DNA from: an uncultured Candidatus Saccharibacteria bacterium
GTDB taxonomy: Bacteria > Patescibacteriota > Saccharimonadia > Saccharimonadales > CAIOMD01
Direction of reading: 5' to 3'
DNA: 64,000 nt
Assembly: GCA_903859365.1 (NCBI GenBank)
Contig: CAIOMD010000007.1
Coordinates: 477-64,476 of the forward strand
The notes below the pieces were generated by a model. The model was not told the DNA's origin, did not search any database, and saw only the letters and a list, made by a program, of their open reading frames with translations. Of this stretch, positions 35,059 to 61,377 are shown piece after piece. The position numbers and the translations under genes are program-made. The stretch's first letter is position 1. The number at the start of each line of letters is the position of its first letter.

Positions 35059-37559
35059 AAGTTGGTATAAAAGCAATTGAAGGAAACAGTAGTCTTCGAT
35101 TCAATAAGACTGATATAGATAACTTAGTCGAAAAAATTGGTTCACAGCTAGGAGCAGTTGATGAAGTTATAGATTGGGGCGAGCGTTACGAGGGAGTTGT
35201 TATAGTGCGAGTTATTTCTTGTGTAAAACATGAAAATGCCGACAATCTTAATGTTTGTCTTGTTGATGATGGTGGAATTGCAAAGAACGTAGAGAGAAAT
35301 CCAGAAGGATATGTTCAGGTAGTGTGCGGCGCGCCAAATGTGCGGGAAGGGATACTCGTTGCTTGGATACCACCTGGAGTGTCTGTTCCAAACACTTTTG
35401 GCTCTGAAGATGTTTTTGTAATCGGCGCAAAAGAGCTTCGCGGAGTTATGAGTAACGGAATGCTTGCGAGTCCATCTGAGCTTTATTTAAGTGATGACCA
35501 TAGTGGTCTACTTGAATTTGACGAAGATATAAACGGAACTACTCCTAAGCCGGGTGATTATTTCGCCAAAGCTATAGGAATGGATGAAATAATTATAGAT
35601 ATTGAAAATAAAATGTTTACCCATCGCCCAGATTGTTTTGGGATTCTTGGAGTAGCCAGAGAAATTAGTGGCATTATGGGTAAAGCGTTCGAGAGTCCTT
35701 CGTGGTATCTTGAAACACCTTCGTTTGAAAAAATACAAAAGCTACCGCTTTCTGTAAGTGTTGAAACTCCTGGACTGGTACCTCGTTTTATGGCAGTCGT
35801 AATGGATAATGTGCAAATGGCGGACAGCCCACTTTGGATGCAAGCACAACTACGACGGATAGGTATACGGTCAATTAATAATGTCGTCGATGTAACAAAT
35901 TACGTTATGTATATCACCGGCCAGCCACTTCATGCGTATGATTACGATAAGGTTGCAAAATTATCTTCGAAGGGCGCCGAGATTATAGTTCGCCATCCTC
36001 GCGCTAATGAAAAATTGCAACTGCTTAATGGAAAAACAATTGTACCTCGGACTGATGCCGTGGTGATTGCTAGCTCAAATGAGAGTATCGGACTTGGTGG
36101 AGTTATGGGTGGAGGCACCACTGAAGTGGACAAAAATACGACCCGCATAATTATTGAAGTTGCTAGTTTTGATATGTATAACATTCGAAAAACATCGATG
36201 CATCACGGCCTATTCACTGATGCTGTTACACGATTCAGCAAAGGGCAGTCAGTGCACCAAAACGATCGAGTTCTTAGCTATGCAATTGCTCAAATGATGA
36301 TTTTCGCTAACGGTACTCTAGCAAGTTCAGTCGTTGATGTAAAAAATGATCTAAAACCAAATCCAAAAATTATTCTTACCCCAGAATTTGTAAATGAAAG
36401 ACTTGGCATTGACTTGGGCATTGATGCTATGGAGAAGCTACTGGGTAATGTAGAATTTATTGTCTCTAAAGATAAGGGCCAACTTCACGTAACAGCTCCG
36501 TTTTGGAGAACTGATATAGCAATGAAGGAAGATGTTGTTGAAGAAATCGGAAGACTTCATGGTTTCGATAAACTTCCACTTACTTTGCCAGAAAAATCTA
36601 TTCTTCCGACCATCCCTAATAGCATGCTGAATATCAAATCTACTATTCGCGATAGCCTATGCCGTTTTGGTGCCAACGAAATACTAAGTTATAGCTTTGT
36701 GCATGGCGCACTCATGCAACAAGTTGGTCAAGATCCGACAAAAGCATTTAGTCTGTCAAATGCCTTAAGCCCGAATTTGCAGTATTACCGATTGACTTTA
36801 ACCCCAAGTTTACTTGAAAAAATTCATTCAAACGCAAAGGCAGGCTATGATGAATTTGCTATATTTGAGCTCGGAAAAGGACATTCACTAGAAAATAGTG
36901 ACGATGGGTCGGGTGTTCCTGAAGAGTTTGAAAAATTAGCCTTTGTGTATAGCGCTCAAACCAAAGCTGTTTCAAAAAATAGTGGAGAAGCTTATTTTAA
37001 AGCAAGCTATTTCCTGCAGGCATTACTCACAAACCTCCGTATTAATTACGCGCTTGAAGCAGTTAAGAATACTGAAGCACCTTTTGATCCTAAAAGAAGT
37101 GCTACAATTTTGGAAAAGAAAACTGGTCAAGTAATAGGGACTATTGGAGAATATACTCTTAAGACTCTTAAGGGATTGAAGCTCTCTAAATTAACTGCAG
37201 GATTTGAGCTAGATCTTCAAGTTCTTTTAAAACATGCTCAACAAAATGTTAACTACGAGGTTCTTTCCAAGTACCCAAAGATATCTCAGGATATTTCCCT
37301 AAAAGTGACCGGTGCTACAACGTATCAAATGATTGCTTCAGTAATTGATGAAACGGTTGCGTCTATCAATCAAGATACGAAGACGCAAACTACCGTTCAA
37401 CCACTTGATATATTTATGAATGAAGAAGGTGACAAACATACCACTTTTCGCTTAATTTTTAGTAGCCTTCAAAGAACACTCACCACCGAGGAAGTGTCAG
37501 GATTCTTAGACCGCATTGACGAACAGTTAACGAAGAAGCTCGGTGCAATAAGAATTTAG
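35055..37559 (+). CDS. pheT: phenylalanine--tRNA ligase subunit beta
   Basis: 834 aa. It has a tRNA-binding N-domain, B3/4 and B5 regions, and a C-terminal FDX-ACB-like domain. ATGA overlap with pheS. Confidence 0.95.
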   Translation: MKVGIKAIEGNSSLRFNKTDIDNLVEKIGSQLGAVDEVIDWGERYEGVVIVRVISCVKHENADNLNVCLVDDGGIAKNVERNPEGYVQVVCGAPNVREGILVAWIPPGVSVPNTFGSEDVFVIGAKELRGVMSNGMLASPSELYLSDDHSGLLEFDEDINGTTPKPGDYFAKAIGMDEIIIDIENKMFTHRPDCFGILGVAREISGIMGKAFESPSWYLETPSFEKIQKLPLSVSVETPGLVPRFMAVVMDNVQMADSPLWMQAQLRRIGIRSINNVVDVTNYVMYITGQPLHAYDYDKVAKLSSKGAEIIVRHPRANEKLQLLNGKTIVPRTDAVVIASSNESIGLGGVMGGGTTEVDKNTTRIIIEVASFDMYNIRKTSMHHGLFTDAVTRFSKGQSVHQNDRVLSYAIAQMMIFANGTLASSVVDVKNDLKPNPKIILTPEFVNERLGIDLGIDAMEKLLGNVEFIVSKDKGQLHVTAPFWRTDIAMKEDVVEEIGRLHGFDKLPLTLPEKSILPTIPNSMLNIKSTIRDSLCRFGANEILSYSFVHGALMQQVGQDPTKAFSLSNALSPNLQYYRLTLTPSLLEKIHSNAKAGYDEFAIFELGKGHSLENSDDGSGVPEEFEKLAFVYSAQTKAVSKNSGEAYFKASYFLQALLTNLRINYALEAVKNTEAPFDPKRSATILEKKTGQVIGTIGEYTLKTLKGLKLSKLTAGFELDLQVLLKHAQQNVNYEVLSKYPKISQDISLKVTGATTYQMIASVIDETVASINQDTKTQTTVQPLDIFMNEEGDKHTTFRLIFSSLQRTLTTEEVSGFLDRIDEQLTKKLGAIRI

Positions 37560-37568
37560 TAATTATTA

Positions 37569-37597
37569 TTGCAAAATAGTTGATTTAATGGTATATT
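37569..37597 (+). promoter_or_regulatory. near-consensus sigma70-type promoter with extended -10
   Basis: TTGCAA (37569-74), a 17-nt spacer, then TGgTATATT (37589-97). It begins 10 nt after the pheT stop. Confidence 0.5.
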
Positions 37598-37658
37598 AGC
37601 GAAGCTAGTTTTTCAGTTTACTGAAATATTGGTACTTTAACAGGTGATGTAATCCCAA

Positions 37659-37735
37659 GCGCCATTAGCTTAAAGGAAAAGCGCTGGAACGTGAATTTGT
37701 TTCCAGAGATGTAGGTTCGACTCCTATATGGTGCG
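37659..37735 (+). tRNA. tRNA-like cloverleaf with G3:U70 and an oversized anticodon loop (not a canonical decoding tRNA)
   Basis: The acceptor stem pairs GCGCCAT with ATGGTGC (7 bp including G3-U70). The D arm is GCTT-AAAGGAA-AAGC. The anticodon stem CTGGAA/TTCCAG encloses an 11-nt loop, CGTGAATTTGT. The T arm is GTAGG-TTCGACT-CCTAT. No CCA is encoded. Confidence 0.45.
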
Positions 37736-37926
37736 CGAGGCATACTCAGTGTCGTTTATACGAACAAGTATGCCCCAAGACGTGCTCTAAACTAGATTCC
37801 GACAGTCGAAATTTAGAGTACCAGGGATAGAGAAGCTTAGTTTTTTTGGTTTTTACCTCATTAGCTATGTTTCTCTATCCCGCCAATCTGCAGTTCCACA
37901 ATCGAACCTTGAAGGGGGTGATTATA

Positions 37927-38073
37927 GTGGCTTCCAACCAGGAAGAAGCTGTGCGTAGAGCATCGAGAGATGCCGGCATCGGTTCAAAGGAAGAGAAGGC
38001 AGCGTACGACGCTTACTGTGCTTCCATGCGCCGAGCCGGTCAAATTCCGAAGCAACTGCGCGACCTCCGATAA
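37927..38073 (+). CDS. possible small protein (48 aa) embedded in the GC-rich unit
   Basis: GTG 37927 lies 8 nt after a very strong SD-like AAGGGGGTGAT. The product would be (M)ASNQEEAVRRASRDAGIGSKEEKAAYDAYCASMRRAGQIPKQLRDLR. The stop sits inside the hairpin at 38063-38080. Coding status is uncertain. Confidence 0.3.
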   Translation: MASNQEEAVRRASRDAGIGSKEEKAAYDAYCASMRRAGQIPKQLRDLR

Positions 38074-38147
38074 TGGAGGTTTGAATAGACAATCTTTTGG
38101 GATTGATTTGGGCGGAAATACTGCTCAATCAGGTTACATCACCTGTT

Positions 38148-38197
38148 TGTTCTCAGAGTTCATAATGTAAATTGTGAATTGTGAGAACAGTTTTTTT
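38148..38197 (+). terminator. intrinsic terminator
   Basis: The stem TGTTCTCA/TGAGAACA has further inner pairing and is followed by G plus T7. Confidence 0.6.
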
Positions 38198-38235
38198 GCT
38201 AAAAACTTCATCCTTGCGTATGCTTAATATCGAGC

Positions 38236-40005
38236 ATGAGCGCAATTTGGAAAATAATCGTATTTAGCAAGTCACTATGGCGGTATTATGCCGGGATTAG
38301 TGTTTTAACTATTTTCTTAAGTATTGTTAATCTTTCGCAACCACTGCTTTCGGGTTGGGCTATTGATGAAATTGCTAAAGGCACCAAAGCGCATATTTCG
38401 TACGTACTTTGGGTAGCACTTGGTATCTTTGTGCTTGATTTATTGAGTACTGTATTTAGTAATGTTAGCGGTTATTTTGGTGATCAAATGAGCACTAAGC
38501 TGTATAGATTACTCGGCGTTAAATATTACGAACATCTTCTAACGCTACCCCAAGAGTATTTTGACACTGAACTCTCAGGTAAGATAATCAACGTTCAAAA
38601 TAGGTCAATTGTGCAGATTACTAATTTTATGAATATGCTTAGTAATAATTTTCTGCAATTCATCTTCAGCACTATTTTTGCGCTTGTGATAGTCGCTTAT
38701 TACAGTTGGCCTGTAGCTTTGATGCTCTTCTCGCTGTATCCGATTTACCTATTTTTAACCTTCAAGACGAGTAATATTTGGCAAGGATTCCAGCATAAGA
38801 AAAATCATCGATCGGATATTGCAACGGGAAGATTTGGTGAATCAATCTCACAAGTAAAAGTTGTTAAGAGTTTTATTCAAGAGGCCCGAGAAATTCTATT
38901 TTATAAGAAGCAGATGAACGAGATTGTTTCAATCAATAAGCCGCAGTCAAAATATTGGCATAAACGTGATACGCAACGAAGAATCATCCTTAATATTATT
39001 TTCTTTGCTGTTTATGCTTTTATTTTTACCCAAGCCGTCAAGGGAAAATTTAGTCCCGGAGAAGCTGTAGCGCTTATTCTGTATGCCATGCAAATTAGAA
39101 TCCCCATATTTACTATAAGTTTCCTCGTTGATAACACTCAACGCGCTATAGCAGATTCGAAAGATTATTTCGAAATTATGTCACTTGAGCCACGGATTAC
39201 TGATAAAGAACATGCAACTGAGTTAAATGTTAAAAAAGGTGAAATTAATTTTAATAACGTTTCCTTTGCGTATGATAAAAAGGATGTACTCAAAAATATT
39301 TCGTTTGACATTACTCCTGATACCAAAATAGCGTTAGTCGGTGAAAGCGGCGAAGGAAAAACAACTCTTACGAATTTGCTTATTCGATTGTATGAACCGC
39401 AATCAGGTACGATAACTATTGACGGTCAAAATATCCTTAACGTTACTCAAAAAAGTTTACGCGAAAATATTGGTGTTGTATTTCAAGATCCTGCACTGTT
39501 TAGCGGCACAATTTATGAAAATATCTCATATGCAAATGAGAAAGCAACAGAAAAAGAAGTTATTGCTGCTGCTAAAGCTGCAAATGCACACGAGTTTATC
39601 GAGAAATTCGATAAACAATATCAGACACAAATTGGTGAAAAAGGTTTGAAGCTAAGCGGCGGCCAAAAACAGCGAATTGCAATAGCTCGGGCATTACTTA
39701 AGAATGCGCCGATACTTATTTTAGATGAAGCTACATCAAGTCTTGATAGCCGTAGCGAAGGGTTGGTTCAAGAGGCACTCGATAGATTGATGCACGGAAG
39801 AACAACAGTGATAATCGCTCATCGATTAACAACAATTGCGCATGTTGATAAAATTATTACACTTAAAAACGGGCGAGTAGATGAAATAGGAACACCGTCT
39901 GAACTTGCAAAAACGAATGGTATTTACGCTCAATTACTTGCAATCAGTTCTAAGCAGGGCGAGATTGCTAAAAATAAATTAAAAGCTTACGAGATTGCTT
40001 CTTAA
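38236..40005 (+). CDS. ABC exporter, fused permease/ATPase (MsbA/multidrug type)
   Basis: It has six N-terminal TM helices, Walker A (GESGEGKTT), the signature LSGGQKQRIAIARAL and Walker B (ILILDEATS). Confidence 0.9.
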   Translation: MSAIWKIIVFSKSLWRYYAGISVLTIFLSIVNLSQPLLSGWAIDEIAKGTKAHISYVLWVALGIFVLDLLSTVFSNVSGYFGDQMSTKLYRLLGVKYYEHLLTLPQEYFDTELSGKIINVQNRSIVQITNFMNMLSNNFLQFIFSTIFALVIVAYYSWPVALMLFSLYPIYLFLTFKTSNIWQGFQHKKNHRSDIATGRFGESISQVKVVKSFIQEAREILFYKKQMNEIVSINKPQSKYWHKRDTQRRIILNIIFFAVYAFIFTQAVKGKFSPGEAVALILYAMQIRIPIFTISFLVDNTQRAIADSKDYFEIMSLEPRITDKEHATELNVKKGEINFNNVSFAYDKKDVLKNISFDITPDTKIALVGESGEGKTTLTNLLIRLYEPQSGTITIDGQNILNVTQKSLRENIGVVFQDPALFSGTIYENISYANEKATEKEVIAAAKAANAHEFIEKFDKQYQTQIGEKGLKLSGGQKQRIAIARALLKNAPILILDEATSSLDSRSEGLVQEALDRLMHGRTTVIIAHRLTTIAHVDKIITLKNGRVDEIGTPSELAKTNGIYAQLLAISSKQGEIAKNKLKAYEIAS

Positions 40006-57638: not shown

Positions 57639-59615
57639 GTGAATGAGTCTTTTAATTTAGTAACAGAATATCAACCAACAGGAGATCAACCTGCTGCTAT
57701 AAAAGCATTGGTAAATAATTTTTCTAATAACGAAAAAGAACAGGTGTTGCTAGGGGTAACCGGATCAGGCAAAACGTTTACCATGGCAAATGTTATTCAG
57801 CAGCTTCAGAAACCAACGTTGGTACTAGCCCACAACAAAACACTTGCTGCGCAACTGTACAACGAATTTAAAAATTTTTTCCCCGATAATGAAGTCCATT
57901 ATTTTGTTAGCTATTTTGATTACTATCAGCCTGAAGCGTATATCGCACGCAGTGACACCTACATCGAAAAAGATAGTCAGATTAACGAAGAAATCGATAG
58001 ATTACGGCATGCAGCAACAAGTGCACTCTTGAGCCGAAAAGACGTTATTATCGTTGCCAGCGTGAGTTGTATATATGGTATCGGTTCAGTTGATGATTAT
58101 GGTGCTATGGCAATAAAGGTGAGGGTAGGCGAAAAACGAGTTCGAGACAAATTTATGCGCCAACTCACTGATATCCAGTATAAACGAAATGATGTTGCAT
58201 TGGGTCGTAGTACGTTTCGTGTGAGAGGTGATGTGATTGACGTTTTTCCAACGGGAGAGGAAGTGGCATATCGAATTGAATTTTTTGGTGATGAAATTGA
58301 AAAAATTACTCAAATTAACCCTCTCACCGGTGAAGTGGAAAAAAAGCTTGAATCGCACACTATTTTTCCAGGTAGTCACTATGTGACGCCTCATGAAAAA
58401 ATGAAACACGCACTTGGACATATTGAAAAAGAACTCGAAGAAAGATTAGCCTATTTTAATAAGAATAATCTTCTACTTGAAGCACAACGACTTGAACAAA
58501 GAACAAGATTTGATATTGAGATGATGGAAGAAACGGGCTTCGTAAAGGGAATTGAAAATTATTCCAGATATCTAACTAATCGTGAACCCGGAGAACAGCC
58601 GGCAACTCTCATGGACTATTTCCCCGATGATCATTTAATCTTAATAGATGAGAGTCATATGACACTTCCGCAGGTTCGTGGAATGTATAACGGCGACCGA
58701 GCTCGTAAAGAAGTATTGGTAGAGCATGGCTTTCGATTACCAAGTGCACTCGATAATAGGCCATTAACATTCACAGAGTTCGAACGACATATTAATCAGG
58801 TAATTTACGTATCGGCAACTCCTGCAGATTACGAACTCAGCAGATCGCCTGCTCCAATTCAGCAGGTTATTCGTCCAACGGGATTATTAGATCCTGAAAT
58901 TTTTATTAGACCCGTCGAAGGACAAATCGATGATTTGATTGCAGAGATTAGAGACAGAATTAAAAAGAGACAACGCGTACTTGTTACAACTTTAACAAAA
59001 CGAATGGCTGAGGACCTAAAAGAATATCTCGAAGGTCTTGCGATTAAAGTTCAATATTTGCATAGTGATGTCGATACTTTAGAGAGGACGGACATTTTGA
59101 GAGACTTGCGTCTGGGAATTTATGATGTACTCATAGGGATTAACTTGCTAAGAGAAGGGCTTGATCTTCCTGAAGTAAGTCTCGTCGCAATTTTAGATGC
59201 AGACAAAGAAGGTTTCCTGAGAAGCGAGTCAGCGCTTATTCAAACTATAGGACGAGCAGCTCGTCATGTTGAAGGCAAAGTAATCATGTACGCAGACCAT
59301 ATTACAGGCAGCATGAAGCGGGCAATAGATGAAACAAATCGTCGTCGTGCGATTCAGGAAAAATATAATACAGACAATGGAATTACTGCCGTTGGGATTA
59401 TAAAGAGTATTGATGAAAGCTTACGATCAATAGTTGGGGCAGAAAGCAAAGAGGCCAAGACGGCAAAGATCAATTTAGATAAGATACCAAAGGATGAATA
59501 TCATATGCTTGTTAGCGACCTAACGGCACAAATGGATATTGCTGCCGCTAATCTTGAGTTTGAAAAAGCAGCTGATTTACGTGATCTAATTACACAAATT
59601 AAAAATAAACTCTAA
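57639..59615 (+). CDS. uvrB: excinuclease ABC subunit B
   Basis: It has [21 protein letters not shown], helicase motifs and a C-terminal UVR domain ([11 protein letters not shown]). Confidence 0.95.
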
Positions 59616-59665: not shown

Positions 59666-59959
59666 ATGAGTAAAATTAGCGAGCAAGATATTAGAAAGCT
59701 TGCATCACTGAGTAAATTGAAACTTAGTGATGAGGAAGTGAAGCTGTATCAAAAAGAACTAACTTCCATTGTCGCCTATATAGAGCATCTTTCAGAAGCT
59801 GACGTTAATGGGCTCGCACCTACTTCGCAGGTAACCGGACTTAAAAATGTAACAAGAGCAGATGCATTGATAGATTATGGTGTTAGCCCGTCAGATTTAC
59901 TTAAAAATGCTCCAGCTAAAAAAGATAATCAGTTTAAAGTAAAAAGGATGATTGTGTGA
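59666..59959 (+). CDS. gatC: Asp-tRNA(Asn)/Glu-tRNA(Gln) amidotransferase subunit C
   Basis: 97 aa, with the typical GatC pattern (IRKLASLSKLKLSDEE...VTGLKNVTRAD). Confidence 0.9.
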   Translation: MSKISEQDIRKLASLSKLKLSDEEVKLYQKELTSIVAYIEHLSEADVNGLAPTSQVTGLKNVTRADALIDYGVSPSDLLKNAPAKKDNQFKVKRMIV

Positions 59960-61377
59960 ATTGGGACTCAATAGAAAAAATAGCCCATGATGTTTCAAGC
60001 GGAAAAGTAACGGCCGAATCATTGGTCGAACGCTCTTTGGGAGCGATAGAAGAAACAAAAGAATATAACGCAATTCTTGCCGTGTCTAAAATCCGAGCAC
60101 TTGAGCGGGCTCGAGAAATCGACCAAAAAGTGAAAAATGGAGAAAATATTGGCAAACTCGCCGGAGTTCCTTTTATTGCAAAGGATAATTTTTTAACTTT
60201 TGATACTACAACTACTGCGTCTAGTCATATGCTAGAAAATTTCCATGCGCCTTATCAAGCGACTGCAATTGAGCGTCTTGAAGCAGCGGGAGCAATTATG
60301 GTTGCTAAATCAAATCTTGATTCATTCGCCCATGGAAGTAGCACCGAAAATAGTGCGTTTGGCCCAACACTTAATCCACTTGATAAAAGTAAAGTTCCCG
60401 GAGGATCGTCTGGTGGATCCGCAGCTGCCGTCGCACTTAAAATAGCTCCATTTGCACTCGGCACCGATACAGGTGGCTCCATACGTTTACCAGCTAGTTT
60501 TTGTGGTGTCGTTGGATATAAGCCTACCTATGGACTCGTATCGCGTTATGGAGTTGTTGCAATGGCCAGTTCAACTGATGTTATTGGGCCCATAACCACT
60601 TCAGTGGAAGATGCTGCAGTTGTTCTTGATGTTATGAGCGGCAAAGATCGATTTGATGGTACAACTATTGATCGTGACTTAGACATATACGATGGAAAGC
60701 CATTTAGCCTTAAGGGCAAAAAGATAGGACTCCTCAAAGAATATCTTTCAAGTGGTATTGATGAGGGCGTGAAGAAGGTTGTTCTTGATACTGTTGAAAA
60801 AATTAAAGCCCAAGGAGCAGAAATAGTTGAAGTAAGTATCCCTTCAATTTCACTTTCACTAGCATGCTATTACGTGCTTGTACCTGCAGAAGTCAGTAGT
60901 AATTTAAGTAGATACGATGGTCAACGTTATGGTCTAAGTGATACTACAGCTAAAAATCTAGATGAAAGTTTTGAGAAGAGTCGTGCTGCTGGATTTGAGG
61001 CTGAAAATAAGCGAAGAATAATGATTGGAACTTACGTACTCAGCAGCGGTTACTACGACGCATATTATAAGAAGGCTCAAATTGTCAGAACAAAACTTAT
61101 AAATGAATTCAATACAGTTTTTGAAAAAGTAGATTATTTGATAGGGCCGACCGCTCCAATGACTGCTTTTGAAATAGGTAAAAATGTAGATGATCAATTG
61201 CAAATGTATCTCGCAGATATTATGACGGTATCCGCTAACCTGGTCGGAATTCCTTCTATTAGTATTCCAGCAGGAAACGCGAATAGCATGCCAGTAGGTT
61301 TGCAGCTTATGGCGCCACAGAAAAGTGACCGGAATTTATTAGCACTCGCAGCAGCAATTGAAAAGGAAATAGAATGA
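59956..61377 (+). CDS. gatA: Asp-tRNA(Asn)/Glu-tRNA(Gln) amidotransferase subunit A
   Basis: The amidase signature is GGSSGGSAAAVA...GTDTGGSIRLPA. GTGA overlap with gatC. Confidence 0.95.
   Translation: MNWDSIEKIAHDVSSGKVTAESLVERSLGAIEETKEYNAILAVSKIRALERAREIDQKVKNGENIGKLAGVPFIAKDNFLTFDTTTTASSHMLENFHAPYQATAIERLEAAGAIMVAKSNLDSFAHGSSTENSAFGPTLNPLDKSKVPGGSSGGSAAAVALKIAPFALGTDTGGSIRLPASFCGVVGYKPTYGLVSRYGVVAMASSTDVIGPITTSVEDAAVVLDVMSGKDRFDGTTIDRDLDIYDGKPFSLKGKKIGLLKEYLSSGIDEGVKKVVLDTVEKIKAQGAEIVEVSIPSISLSLACYYVLVPAEVSSNLSRYDGQRYGLSDTTAKNLDESFEKSRAAGFEAENKRRIMIGTYVLSSGYYDAYYKKAQIVRTKLINEFNTVFEKVDYLIGPTAPMTAFEIGKNVDDQLQMYLADIMTVSANLVGIPSISIPAGNANSMPVGLQLMAPQKSDRNLLALAAAIEKEIE

Follow-up and report, generated by a model that had tools for sequence, protein, structure and literature searches.

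Between pheT and an ABC exporter gene of an uncultured Candidatus Saccharibacteria bacterium (contig CAIOMD010000007.1) we found an independent transcription unit whose predicted RNA joins a tRNA-shaped module to the mRNA of a small protein and is closed by a long-range helix. All coordinates refer to the 64,000 nucleotide (nt) stretch of this contig that was analysed, here called the window. We favour the interpretation of the unit as an end-clamped bifunctional RNA, in which a tRNA-shaped module for processing or stability accompanies a small-protein mRNA, and as a member of a modular and previously undescribed Saccharibacteria family; in our judgement this has about an even chance of being correct. 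An earlier note on the same DNA had proposed a novel large RNA at this site. The proposal stands insofar as the region is structured, contains helices with compensatory changes and matches no Rfam family other than tRNA, and it needs amending in that the RNA appears to be a composite with a tRNA mimic and a small-protein mRNA.

A structured transcription unit downstream of pheT

The unit lies on the + strand between the stop codon of pheT (37559) and the ATG of the ATP-binding cassette (ABC) exporter gene (38236). A sigma-70-type promoter at 37569..37597 on the + strand (TTGCAA, 17 nt, TG-n-TATATT) is the sole promoter-like match in 37300-38500, and a terminal hairpin at 38148..38197 on the + strand (19-nt arms 38148-38166/38171-38189, followed by T7) represents an intrinsic terminator in the window lineage. 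Both had been predicted before and both were recovered: the promoter with its upstream TG is unique in this interval and its hexamers are retained in the relatives L001 and L046 (-35 TTGC[AG]A, -10 TA[TC]ATT), and the stem at 38148-38189 with its T7 is kept throughout the window lineage. At the equivalent site L024, L084, L090, L092 and L094 showed promoters of the TTGAC[CA]-17-TAATAT type. The terminal hairpin is homologous family-wide (CUCAGARWUCAUAA / CCCAUAGWUCAUAAAC), and its U tract is missing in L038 and the L084-type lineages. As judged from these signals, the interval is an independent and highly structured promoter-to-terminator unit on the + strand with a predicted transcript of about 590 nt beginning near 37604. 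The tRNA-shaped module takes up about 13% of it and an open reading frame (ORF) about 25%; the 676-nt gap, which had been regarded as non-coding, thus contains a tRNA-like gene and a conserved 48-codon ORF.

The GC-rich body described earlier was confirmed, with a GC content of 0.515 over 37900-38099 vs 0.34-0.38 in the next gene, and the ORF itself accounts for much of the GC richness at 37921-38100. The minimum free energy of the + strand was -240.1 kcal/mol vs -164 +/- 5 for dinucleotide shuffles (z = -14.8), the - strand reached z = -7.3, and the remaining 600-nt segments of the window ranged from -114 to -176 kcal/mol. The homologous units of L038 and L024 folded at z = -12.9 and z = -12.7, respectively.

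A long-range helix closes the unit

The ends of the unit are joined by a helix, P1, between AACAGGTGATGTAA (37639..37652, + strand) and TTACATCACCTGTT (38134..38147, + strand), which lie about 480 nt apart and are perfectly complementary over 14 nt. Nine lineages keep CAGGUG/CACCUG in P1 while six inner positions are altered on both sides with pairing retained. Even this core is replaced in a compensatory manner in L101, with CAGAGA/TCTCTG instead of CAGGTG/CACCTG, and L092 contains one G.U pair and one mismatch. Across the family P1 is 11-16 bp long, and in most lineages the inverted repeats are perfect over 11-14 bp. As P1 covaries and is re-coded in L101, we conclude that it is a selected helix whose sequence is not essential. 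The earlier note had emphasized the rarity of the 14-nt repeat. The repeat is real and is validated by covariation in other lineages, but its rarity alone is not decisive: three perfect long-range inverted repeats of 14 nt occur in the window vs 0.63 expected from block shuffles, and the P1 repeat by itself therefore proves nothing. The re-coding in L101 to CAGAGA/UCUCUG also weakened the idea that CAGGUG/CACCUG of P1 mimics a Shine-Dalgarno/anti-Shine-Dalgarno pair.

The two other repeats are located at 1514-1527/2365-2378 (within ORF 699-2402) and at 59423-59436/60662-60675 (in ORFs 57639-59615 and 59956-61377). Neither has any sequence in common with P1, and both seem to reflect chance or low complexity (CAACAACAA).

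Upstream of P1 the RNA would begin with a leader hairpin (37604..37633, + strand) that opens at a conserved AGCT near the predicted transcription start. In the window lineage this hairpin (RNAalifold helix 1) is invariant, and all other lineages showed a hairpin of different sequence at the equivalent leader position. It is followed by the motif GGTACTTTAACA (37631..37642, + strand; family consensus GYACWTTRACAG), which overlaps the start of P1 and is the only leader block of primary sequence common to all lineages. The motif is boxA-like. The gamma-proteobacterial boxA consensus is GYTCTTTAANA with C4 and T6 being critical (PMC5725501); L001 matches it at 11/11 positions, the window at 10/11 and the others at 8-9/11. 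Positions C4, T6 and T7 are invariant across the lineages.

In the L084-type leaders (L084:6062-6104, L090, L092, L094, L097) the 5' hairpin contains a conserved internal loop with CGUGAGG opposite CC(A/C)UG(A/U)U(A/U)GG. These strands recall a kink-turn or a C/D-box-like motif and are absent from the window lineage.

A tRNA-shaped module with an abnormal anticodon arm

Directly downstream of the 5' strand of P1, both Rfam and ARAGORN detected a tRNA-like cloverleaf (37659..37735, + strand) with U8, G18G19 and a TTCGA T-loop and without an encoded CCA. Its score for the Rfam tRNA family (RF00005) of 53.3 bits exceeded the gathering score of 29, and the acceptor stem, D arm, T arm and the nucleotides of the tertiary contacts are normal. 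The anticodon arm is abnormal in all three sublineages of the window lineage, with a stem of 7-8 bp and an 8-nt loop, GUGAAUNU. The Rfam alignment placed 13 nt where a 7-nt loop is expected, and ARAGORN assigned it a 4-nt anticodon, gaat, under the label 'tRNA-???'. The window module thus lacks what decoding requires, an anticodon stem of 5 bp and a 7-nt loop with U33 and three anticodon nucleotides. Its 3' end reads ...GGUGC-G-CGAGG, and a G3:U70 pair in the modules of the window and L046 is replaced by A3-U70 in L001. In relatives the D and T stems showed compensatory changes and the acceptor and anticodon stems showed changes that preserve pairing.

The anticodon arm also varies between more distant lineages, with loops of 4, 6, 7, 8 or 10 nt across the family. 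L084 encodes a Pro-UGG module, L090 has a loop of about 10 nt, L092 a UUCG tetraloop and L094 a 6-nt loop; the modules of L038, L097 and L099 carry AUU, AUG and ACC, and that of L100 is Cys-GCA. The acceptor, D and T arms of L090 are nearly identical to those of the canonical-looking tRNA-Pro of L084. The preservation of these three arms while the anticodon loop drifts argues for selection on the tRNA shape and not on decoding, and we infer that it is the shape of the module, not the anticodon, that is maintained.

The modules with AUU (L038:1892-1966), AUG (L097:2929-3001) and ACC (L099:9-85) have canonical 7-nt loops and A34 anticodons. To our knowledge, bacteria normally do not use A34 anticodons, with the exception of ACG.

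Two more specific roles were considered for the module and dismissed. A tRNA-Phe mimic regulating PheRS was suggested by the window loop, which contains U-GAA with the Phe anticodon, and by its location beside pheST; this was rejected because other lineages have Pro, Cys, His, Asn, Gly-type or loop-degenerate modules at the same site. Quadruplet decoding of an AUUC in the ORF by the 8-nt loop was ruled out by L001, which has no AUUC site.

A small protein gene behind a sequestered ribosome-binding site

The second module is a gene at 37927..38073 on the + strand with a GTG start, 48 codons and a TAA stop, encoding MASNQEEAVRRASRDAGIGSKEEKAAYDAYCASMRRAGQIPKQLRDLR, for which we use the family name MASNQ. 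The Shine-Dalgarno site GGGGGTGAT precedes the GTG at 37927. Length, start and stop of the ORF are constant in all variants of the window lineage, where the encoded proteins form three near-identical clusters. Changes are distributed over the codon positions as 4:5:15, the ratio of non-synonymous to synonymous substitution rates (dN/dS) is 0.15-0.31, and synonymous vs non-synonymous codon changes amount to 13:5 in frame and to 1:18 and 0:18 in the other frames. By this frame-conserved and synonymously biased pattern of change the predicted 48-codon ORF is a gene under purifying selection.

A profile search against 1.84 billion representatives returned 18 matches with E < 1e-3, mostly of 44-55 residues, which yielded the family consensus MA[SG]NQEEAVKRA...AYxxYxxSMxxAGQxPKxL. 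One of them is annotated as a hypothetical protein of Saccharimonadales. Searches of Pfam, NCBIfam, PHROGs, PDB sequences and, by Foldseek, the PDB found nothing similar to the MASNQ protein. The AlphaFold model of the 48 residues has two or three helices of low confidence (predicted local distance difference test score, pLDDT, of 66).

The start of this gene is enclosed in a hairpin (37896..37930, + strand; helices 10-11) that would sequester the ribosome-binding site and forms an invariant block in the window lineage. Its paired strands are CCAC/GUGG at the start codon, AAUC/GAUU, and ACCUU/GGGGU at the Shine-Dalgarno site (37914-37922), and the sole change within the lineage, a G to A in the Shine-Dalgarno site, retains the pair. 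In most ORF-bearing lineages an ACCUY...RGGAGGU hairpin lies immediately 5' of the start codon regardless of the type of ORF.

Public gene calls represent this locus poorly. P0124 (212 aa) and P0127 (216 aa) stretch the MASNQ ORF upstream through the GC-rich hairpins; these proteins of about 210 residues are spurious and only their C-terminal 48 residues are real. In L092 a protein of 162 residues was called on the opposite strand within the unit. The role of a bacteriocin, or of a precursor of a ribosomally synthesized and post-translationally modified peptide, exported by the neighbouring ABC transporter was unsupported, as the exporter is also present at sites without the unit and has no peptidase domain.

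Hairpins and conserved blocks

Between the two modules lie three hairpins. H1 (37739..37774, + strand; arms 37739-46/37767-74) has 8 perfect bp, and three pairs of this helix 7 are compensatory in relatives. H2 (37782..37821, + strand) has 10-nt arms that are 90% complementary, with one compensatory and four one-sided changes in helix 8. H3 (37824..37881, + strand; arms 37824-40/37865-81) has 17-nt arms with 88% complementarity, and its lower stem GGGATAGAGAA/TTTCTCTATCCC (helix 9) is invariant while the apex is variable. Another hairpin, ACCUCC/GGAGGU (38063..38080, + strand), was read from the sequence and holds the stop codon in its loop; one-sided changes in this helix 19 preserve pairing. 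It is followed by a conserved block of the 3' untranslated region (UTR; 38081..38133, + strand), which includes a GGGCGG-AAAUA-CUGCUC hairpin and TCAATCAGG immediately before P1. The block is nearly invariant in three sublineages with about 20% difference in the PheT protein, and in other lineages a TCAA-n-CAGG motif again precedes P1.

All local helices of the earlier note (37739-74, 37782-821, 37824-81, a GAGA-loop hairpin and the ACCTCC/GGAGGT hairpin) are present. Two further pairings had been proposed there. The 6-bp pair 37890-95/38054-59 was found in the window and is disrupted in the L046 lineage (alignment A1), and the possible pair 37882-88/38105-13 fits all three sublineages, yet is not distinguished from a local alternative. 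The RNAalifold consensus contained 8 compensatory pairs vs 3.4 +/- 1.3 in shuffles (0/500 reached 8) and 0-5 in slid controls, and these pairs are concentrated in the tRNA arms, H1 and H2. Among additional pairings that we tried, a kissing interaction of the 5' hairpin with the terminator hairpin has complementary loops in the window and is broken in L046 (alignment A1), and a helix AATCCCAA/TTGGGATT (37651-58/38097-104) is not retained in relatives.

A modular family in Saccharibacteria

Homologues beside pheT in other Saccharibacteria, for which a search had been proposed, were found, and their helices carry compensatory changes. The close relatives comprise 14 lake-metagenome contigs and one metagenome-assembled genome from GTDB with the gene order pheS, pheT, unit, ABC exporter and resistance-nodulation-division (RND) transporter. 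They form three sublineages of 82-100% identity. Leader and P1, the 5' UTR with the ribosome-binding site, and the 3' UTR with P1 and terminator are nearly invariant despite about 20% divergence of the PheT protein, and several blocks are more strongly conserved than the neighbouring coding DNA.

L001 (5503-6190) is a mosaic. From the promoter to H3 it is 82-98% identical to L046 (2626-3308), while the first two-thirds of its ORF are 95-98% identical to the window (37560-38235) and 75-80% to L046, and the breakpoint lies within the invariant 5' UTR block. L001 is thus a recombinant, which indicates homologous exchange between lineages inside the unit.

More distant carriers are a scattered minority (L038, L024, L084, which is the full-length version of L073, L090, L092, L094, L097, L099, L100 and L101). 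Their units are nearly always located between pheT and the same ABC exporter and have so far been seen in Saccharibacteria only. All share a frame in the order promoter, AGCT start, 5' hairpin, GYACWTTRACAG, 5' strand of P1, interior, 3' strand of P1 and terminal hairpin. The interior of 480-1200 nt cannot be aligned from one lineage to the next (44% mean column identity). Its ORF is of the MASNQ type in the window, L097, L099, L100 and L101, cysteine-rich with 42-45 residues in L084, L090 and L092, and zinc-ribbon-like in L094. As the tRNA module is absent from L024 and L101 and the ORF from L024 and L038, neither payload is obligatory for the frame. The exchange of payloads is visible between L092 and L097, which have 71% identical pheT: their units are 71% identical up to the start codon and 91% past the stop codon with unrelated ORFs in between, and the 91% identity of the 3' frame compares to 69% for pheT DNA.

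The ORFs exchanged here read MAKCHGCC... (L092:5778-5906) and MASNQEAAVKRA... (L097:3501-3653), and the swap boundary lies at or just past the start codon; the L084 peptide also opens with MAS. The cysteine-rich family (L084:6517-6648, L090:5566-5703, L092:5778-5906) has an N-terminal CxGCCxxCxG and a C-terminal CX2C...H...C and is without Pfam match. In the L084 peptide the spacing is exactly CX2CX4HX4C, that of a zinc knuckle.

Comparison with known RNAs

Apart from tRNA, the unit matched no described RNA or protein family that we searched. Apart from noise, tRNA was all that an Rfam 15 cmscan (E <= 10) detected in the window region, L038 and L024, with no match to the models of ROOL, GOLLD, OLE, raiA, transfer-messenger RNA (tmRNA), ribonuclease (RNase) P, signal recognition particle (SRP) RNA, 6S RNA or group I introns, and ARAGORN found no tmRNA in the window unit. 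This agrees with the earlier reading, by which RNase P RNA, SRP RNA and tmRNA were lacking. In full-text searches of the literature on structured or tRNA-like RNAs in Saccharibacteria and Patescibacteria we found no description of the unit. By analogy, it is most like a combination of a leader and stalk of the rRNA operon (rrn) type, a tRNA mimic of the mascRNA type and a dual-function RNA.

With rRNA operons it has in common the order of promoter, hairpin (boxB in the operons) and leader motif (boxA in the operons, a candidate boxA here), followed by a long-range helix closing hundreds of nt downstream (the RNase III stem in the operons), the enclosed tRNA-shaped unit (tRNAs embedded in the operon transcript) and a GC-rich stable RNA in an AT-rich genome. 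However, the enclosed RNA is not rRNA and carries an ORF with a coding signature, and P1 has only 11-16 bp. In the eukaryotic MALAT1/mascRNA and MEN-beta transcripts, too, a cloverleaf with a non-decoding anticodon arm lies inside a longer structured transcript, as a putative processing signal in our case. There the tRNA mimic is cut by RNase P and RNase Z, while here such cleavage would be expected from the shape; moreover, our case is from a bacterium, its module sits close to the 5' end, with an ORF downstream, and not at the 3' end, and the triple-helix stabiliser is missing. Dual-function RNAs and small ORFs of tRNA operons include RNAIII/hld, SgrS/SgrT and tyrT-tpr. They likewise are structured RNAs encoding a small protein of <50 residues, but none is known to have a tRNA mimic and an ORF enclosed by an end-to-end helix, and none to show modular swapping.

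A ROOL-, GOLLD- or OLE-like class had been suggested earlier, and size and ornate fold agree with it. The large GOLLD and ROOL RNAs of Weinberg et al. from 2009 and 2017 reportedly lie beside tRNAs or contain them. They resemble the unit in their 500-1200 nt, ornate folding, associated or embedded tRNA, and lake metagenomes among their sources. The unit differs from them by the lack of a covariance-model match (E <= 10), of a conserved pseudoknotted core and of a phage context, and in that it encodes a protein and surrounds a variable interior with a conserved frame. It is therefore not purely non-coding, and only its frame is conserved vs the conserved multi-pseudoknot cores of those RNAs. 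A phage origin found no support, as viral contigs gave no match to the tRNA-arm pattern and PHROGs gave none either.

Like tmRNA, the unit has a tRNA-like part and a short reading frame in one RNA closed by long-range pairing. Unlike in tmRNA, the tRNA-like part is a contiguous cloverleaf rather than an assembly of the two RNA ends, G3:U70 varies between sublineages, no CCA is encoded, and the ORF begins with GTG or ATG behind a Shine-Dalgarno site of its own, whereas the tag ORF of tmRNA has neither. Tagging in the manner of tmRNA was rejected on the negative ARAGORN and Rfam results and the Shine-Dalgarno site and GTG start of the ORF. Bacterial Y RNAs of the YrlA type have about 100-130 nt, lie beside rsr (Ro60) and contain a conserved Ro-binding helix (PMC4201824). 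A stem joining 5' and 3' ends and a tRNA-mimicking module are shared with them, but the unit has about 590 nt with an ORF, pheT and the ABC exporter as neighbours and no Rfam match, and does not qualify as a Y RNA. Group I introns interrupt the anticodon loops of patescibacterial tRNAs (PMC13011429); our unit is unlike these published cases, and no group I intron was found by Rfam.

Possible function and alternative explanations

In the favoured interpretation of an end-clamped bifunctional RNA, RNase P at the 5' end and RNase Z or exonucleases at the 3' end would recognise the tRNA shape, which might alternatively act as a stabiliser. Cleavage at the module would detach the leader and the 5' strand of P1, free a stable tRNA-like RNA and leave the small-protein mRNA with its 5' end capped by H1-H3. 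P1 would tie both ends to each other while the RNA is being made, shield them and perhaps act as an RNase III site. Binding of Nus factors to the boxA-like leader may assist P1 as in rRNA operons; such assisted synthesis would suit a long, mostly untranslated RNA with a long-range stem, as it does in rrn operons. The hairpin over the ribosome-binding site would throttle translation of the 48-residue protein, making it restrained or conditional.

Several observations weigh against this interpretation. The tRNA module is undetectable in L024 and L101, and no convincing ORF was detected in L024 and L038. The embedded Pro-UGG (L084), Cys-GCA (L100) and Gly-UCC (L099) tRNAs look fully functional, and the notion of a mere mimic may fail in some lineages. 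In most lineages the two arms of P1 form Watson-Crick pairs throughout, as would also fit an inverted repeat at the DNA level, and the covariation within the window lineage is based on three sublineages only. The boxA resemblance is statistically weak in an AT-rich genome and only a lead: 21 sites with <=1 mismatch were observed in the window vs 18 expected, so that the motif is not distinctive. Cleavage by RNase P, RNase Z and RNase III as well as Nus binding are all inferred from the sequence.

A related interpretation, which we regard as rather unlikely, is a modular ribonucleoprotein gene specific to Saccharibacteria or the Candidate Phyla Radiation (CPR). Its RNA frame of leader motif, end-to-end clamp, ribosome-binding-site hairpin and terminal hairpin would display the tRNA mimic and encode its own small binding partner (the helical MASNQ protein or the zinc-knuckle-like peptide). 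The mimic would interact with factors that recognise tRNAs, for instance by diverting tRNA-targeting nucleases as a decoy or by sensing or regulating how tRNAs are processed, and the modules would be exchanged between lineages by recombination.

The genomes of Saccharibacteria are tiny and can accommodate little non-essential DNA, and yet several lineages retain this structured GC-rich unit of 0.6-1.2 kb, the non-coding frame of which is better conserved than the adjacent essential gene. The unit might represent a bacterial case of a tRNA shape kept without decoding, which is best known from eukaryotic long RNAs and viruses. It also led to undescribed families of small proteins, at least MASNQ (44-55 residues) and in addition a cysteine-rich one, both of which gene callers mostly miss. 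If the processing model holds true, the unit would be a compact and testable system in which to study how RNase P matures mRNAs and how long-range helices clamp RNAs in CPR bacteria. Composite genes can be hidden behind 'tRNA-???' calls and in long 'intergenic' gaps of CPR genomes.

The unit might alternatively be a large structured non-coding RNA, a scaffold or ribonucleoprotein in the spirit of GOLLD and ROOL with an embedded tRNA; the fold of the RNA would then carry the function, and the ORF would be an accessory passenger or a cis-encoded cofactor. The extreme folding in three independent lineages (z = -12.7 to -14.8), the conservation of leader, 5' UTR and 3' UTR beyond that of the ORF and pheT, and L024, in which the frame and its GC-rich hairpins persist although both tRNA and ORF are missing, speak in its favour, as does the CX2CX4HX4C zinc-knuckle-like peptide among the alternative ORFs, a motif typical of nucleic-acid binders. 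We nevertheless consider it unlikely: the interior is unalignable across lineages (44% mean column identity, 480-1200 nt) with no conserved catalytic or tertiary core visible, Rfam gave no match, the ORF is under clear purifying selection and the ribosome-binding-site hairpin is among the most conserved elements. An ordinary small operon of a functional or decaying tRNA gene and a small-protein gene, with hairpins and end helix only for stability, would account for the canonical-looking tRNA-Pro(UGG) of L084, tRNA-Cys(GCA) of L100 and tRNA-Gly(UCC) of L099, and tRNA-mRNA co-transcripts such as tyrT-tpr and the tufB operon are common in bacteria. The loops of 4, 6, 8 and 10 nt in otherwise well-preserved cloverleaves, the covariation of P1 across spans of 500-1200 nt and the 91% conservation of the frame where pheT DNA is 69% identical make it quite unlikely.

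The inverted repeats of P1, perfect over 11-14 bp in most lineages, could also belong to an invertible or mobile DNA cassette that was inserted at the junction of pheT and the ABC exporter with swappable cargo. Its patchy distribution on the pheT tree with empty sites in close relatives, the swapped ORF modules, the mosaic L001 and the L101 copy at another locus (UvrD...Dus) would fit. We judge this very unlikely, since promoter, 5' hairpin, motif and terminal hairpin lie outside the repeats and are still part of the inserted and conserved unit, and P1 of L092 is imperfect (G.U and mismatch). Against an inverton, there is a single orientation relative to the promoter in 14/14 contigs of the window lineage and in every other lineage, and no recombinase or transposase is found among the neighbours; against a miniature inverted-repeat transposable element or an insertion sequence, there is no target-site duplication and no second copy in the 64-kb window. 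We regard it as highly unlikely that the unit acts as a riboregulator or attenuator, a long cis-regulatory leader belonging to the ABC exporter/RND operon that follows. It is nearly always located directly upstream of the exporter in the same orientation, and the terminal hairpin is without U tract in L038 and the L084-type lineages; but in the window lineage a conserved -10-like box, 5 nt ahead of the exporter ATG, comes after a canonical T7 terminator, empty sites show the same leaderless-like layout, the units of L099 and L101 precede the L25 gene and dus, and most Saccharibacteria run the exporter without the element. Chance was weighed as a fifth alternative.

Gene neighbourhood

In most Saccharibacteria the exporter follows 40-110 nt after pheT with no unit and with its own -10 box just before the ATG, and a metagenome scan for the nearest relatives of L038 found mostly empty sites. 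The -10-like box of the exporter (TAATAT, TATAGT, TAGAAT, TACACT) ends about 5-10 nt before the ATG in carriers and at empty sites alike (window 38196-38235; L012, L019, L037, L060), which suggests a leaderless or near-leaderless exporter mRNA. Two units have other neighbours. In L099 a gene for ribosomal protein L25 follows, and the L101 unit (L101:2600-3262) is flanked by a uvrD-like helicase region and by dus, the gene for tRNA dihydrouridine synthase, whose start codon is overlapped by the terminal hairpin. In some Saccharibacteria an ORF of 108-148 residues between pheS and pheT overlaps the start of pheT in L092 (2179-2511), L094 (2178-2504) and L096 (2058-2504), and in L096 it belongs to the HIT family.

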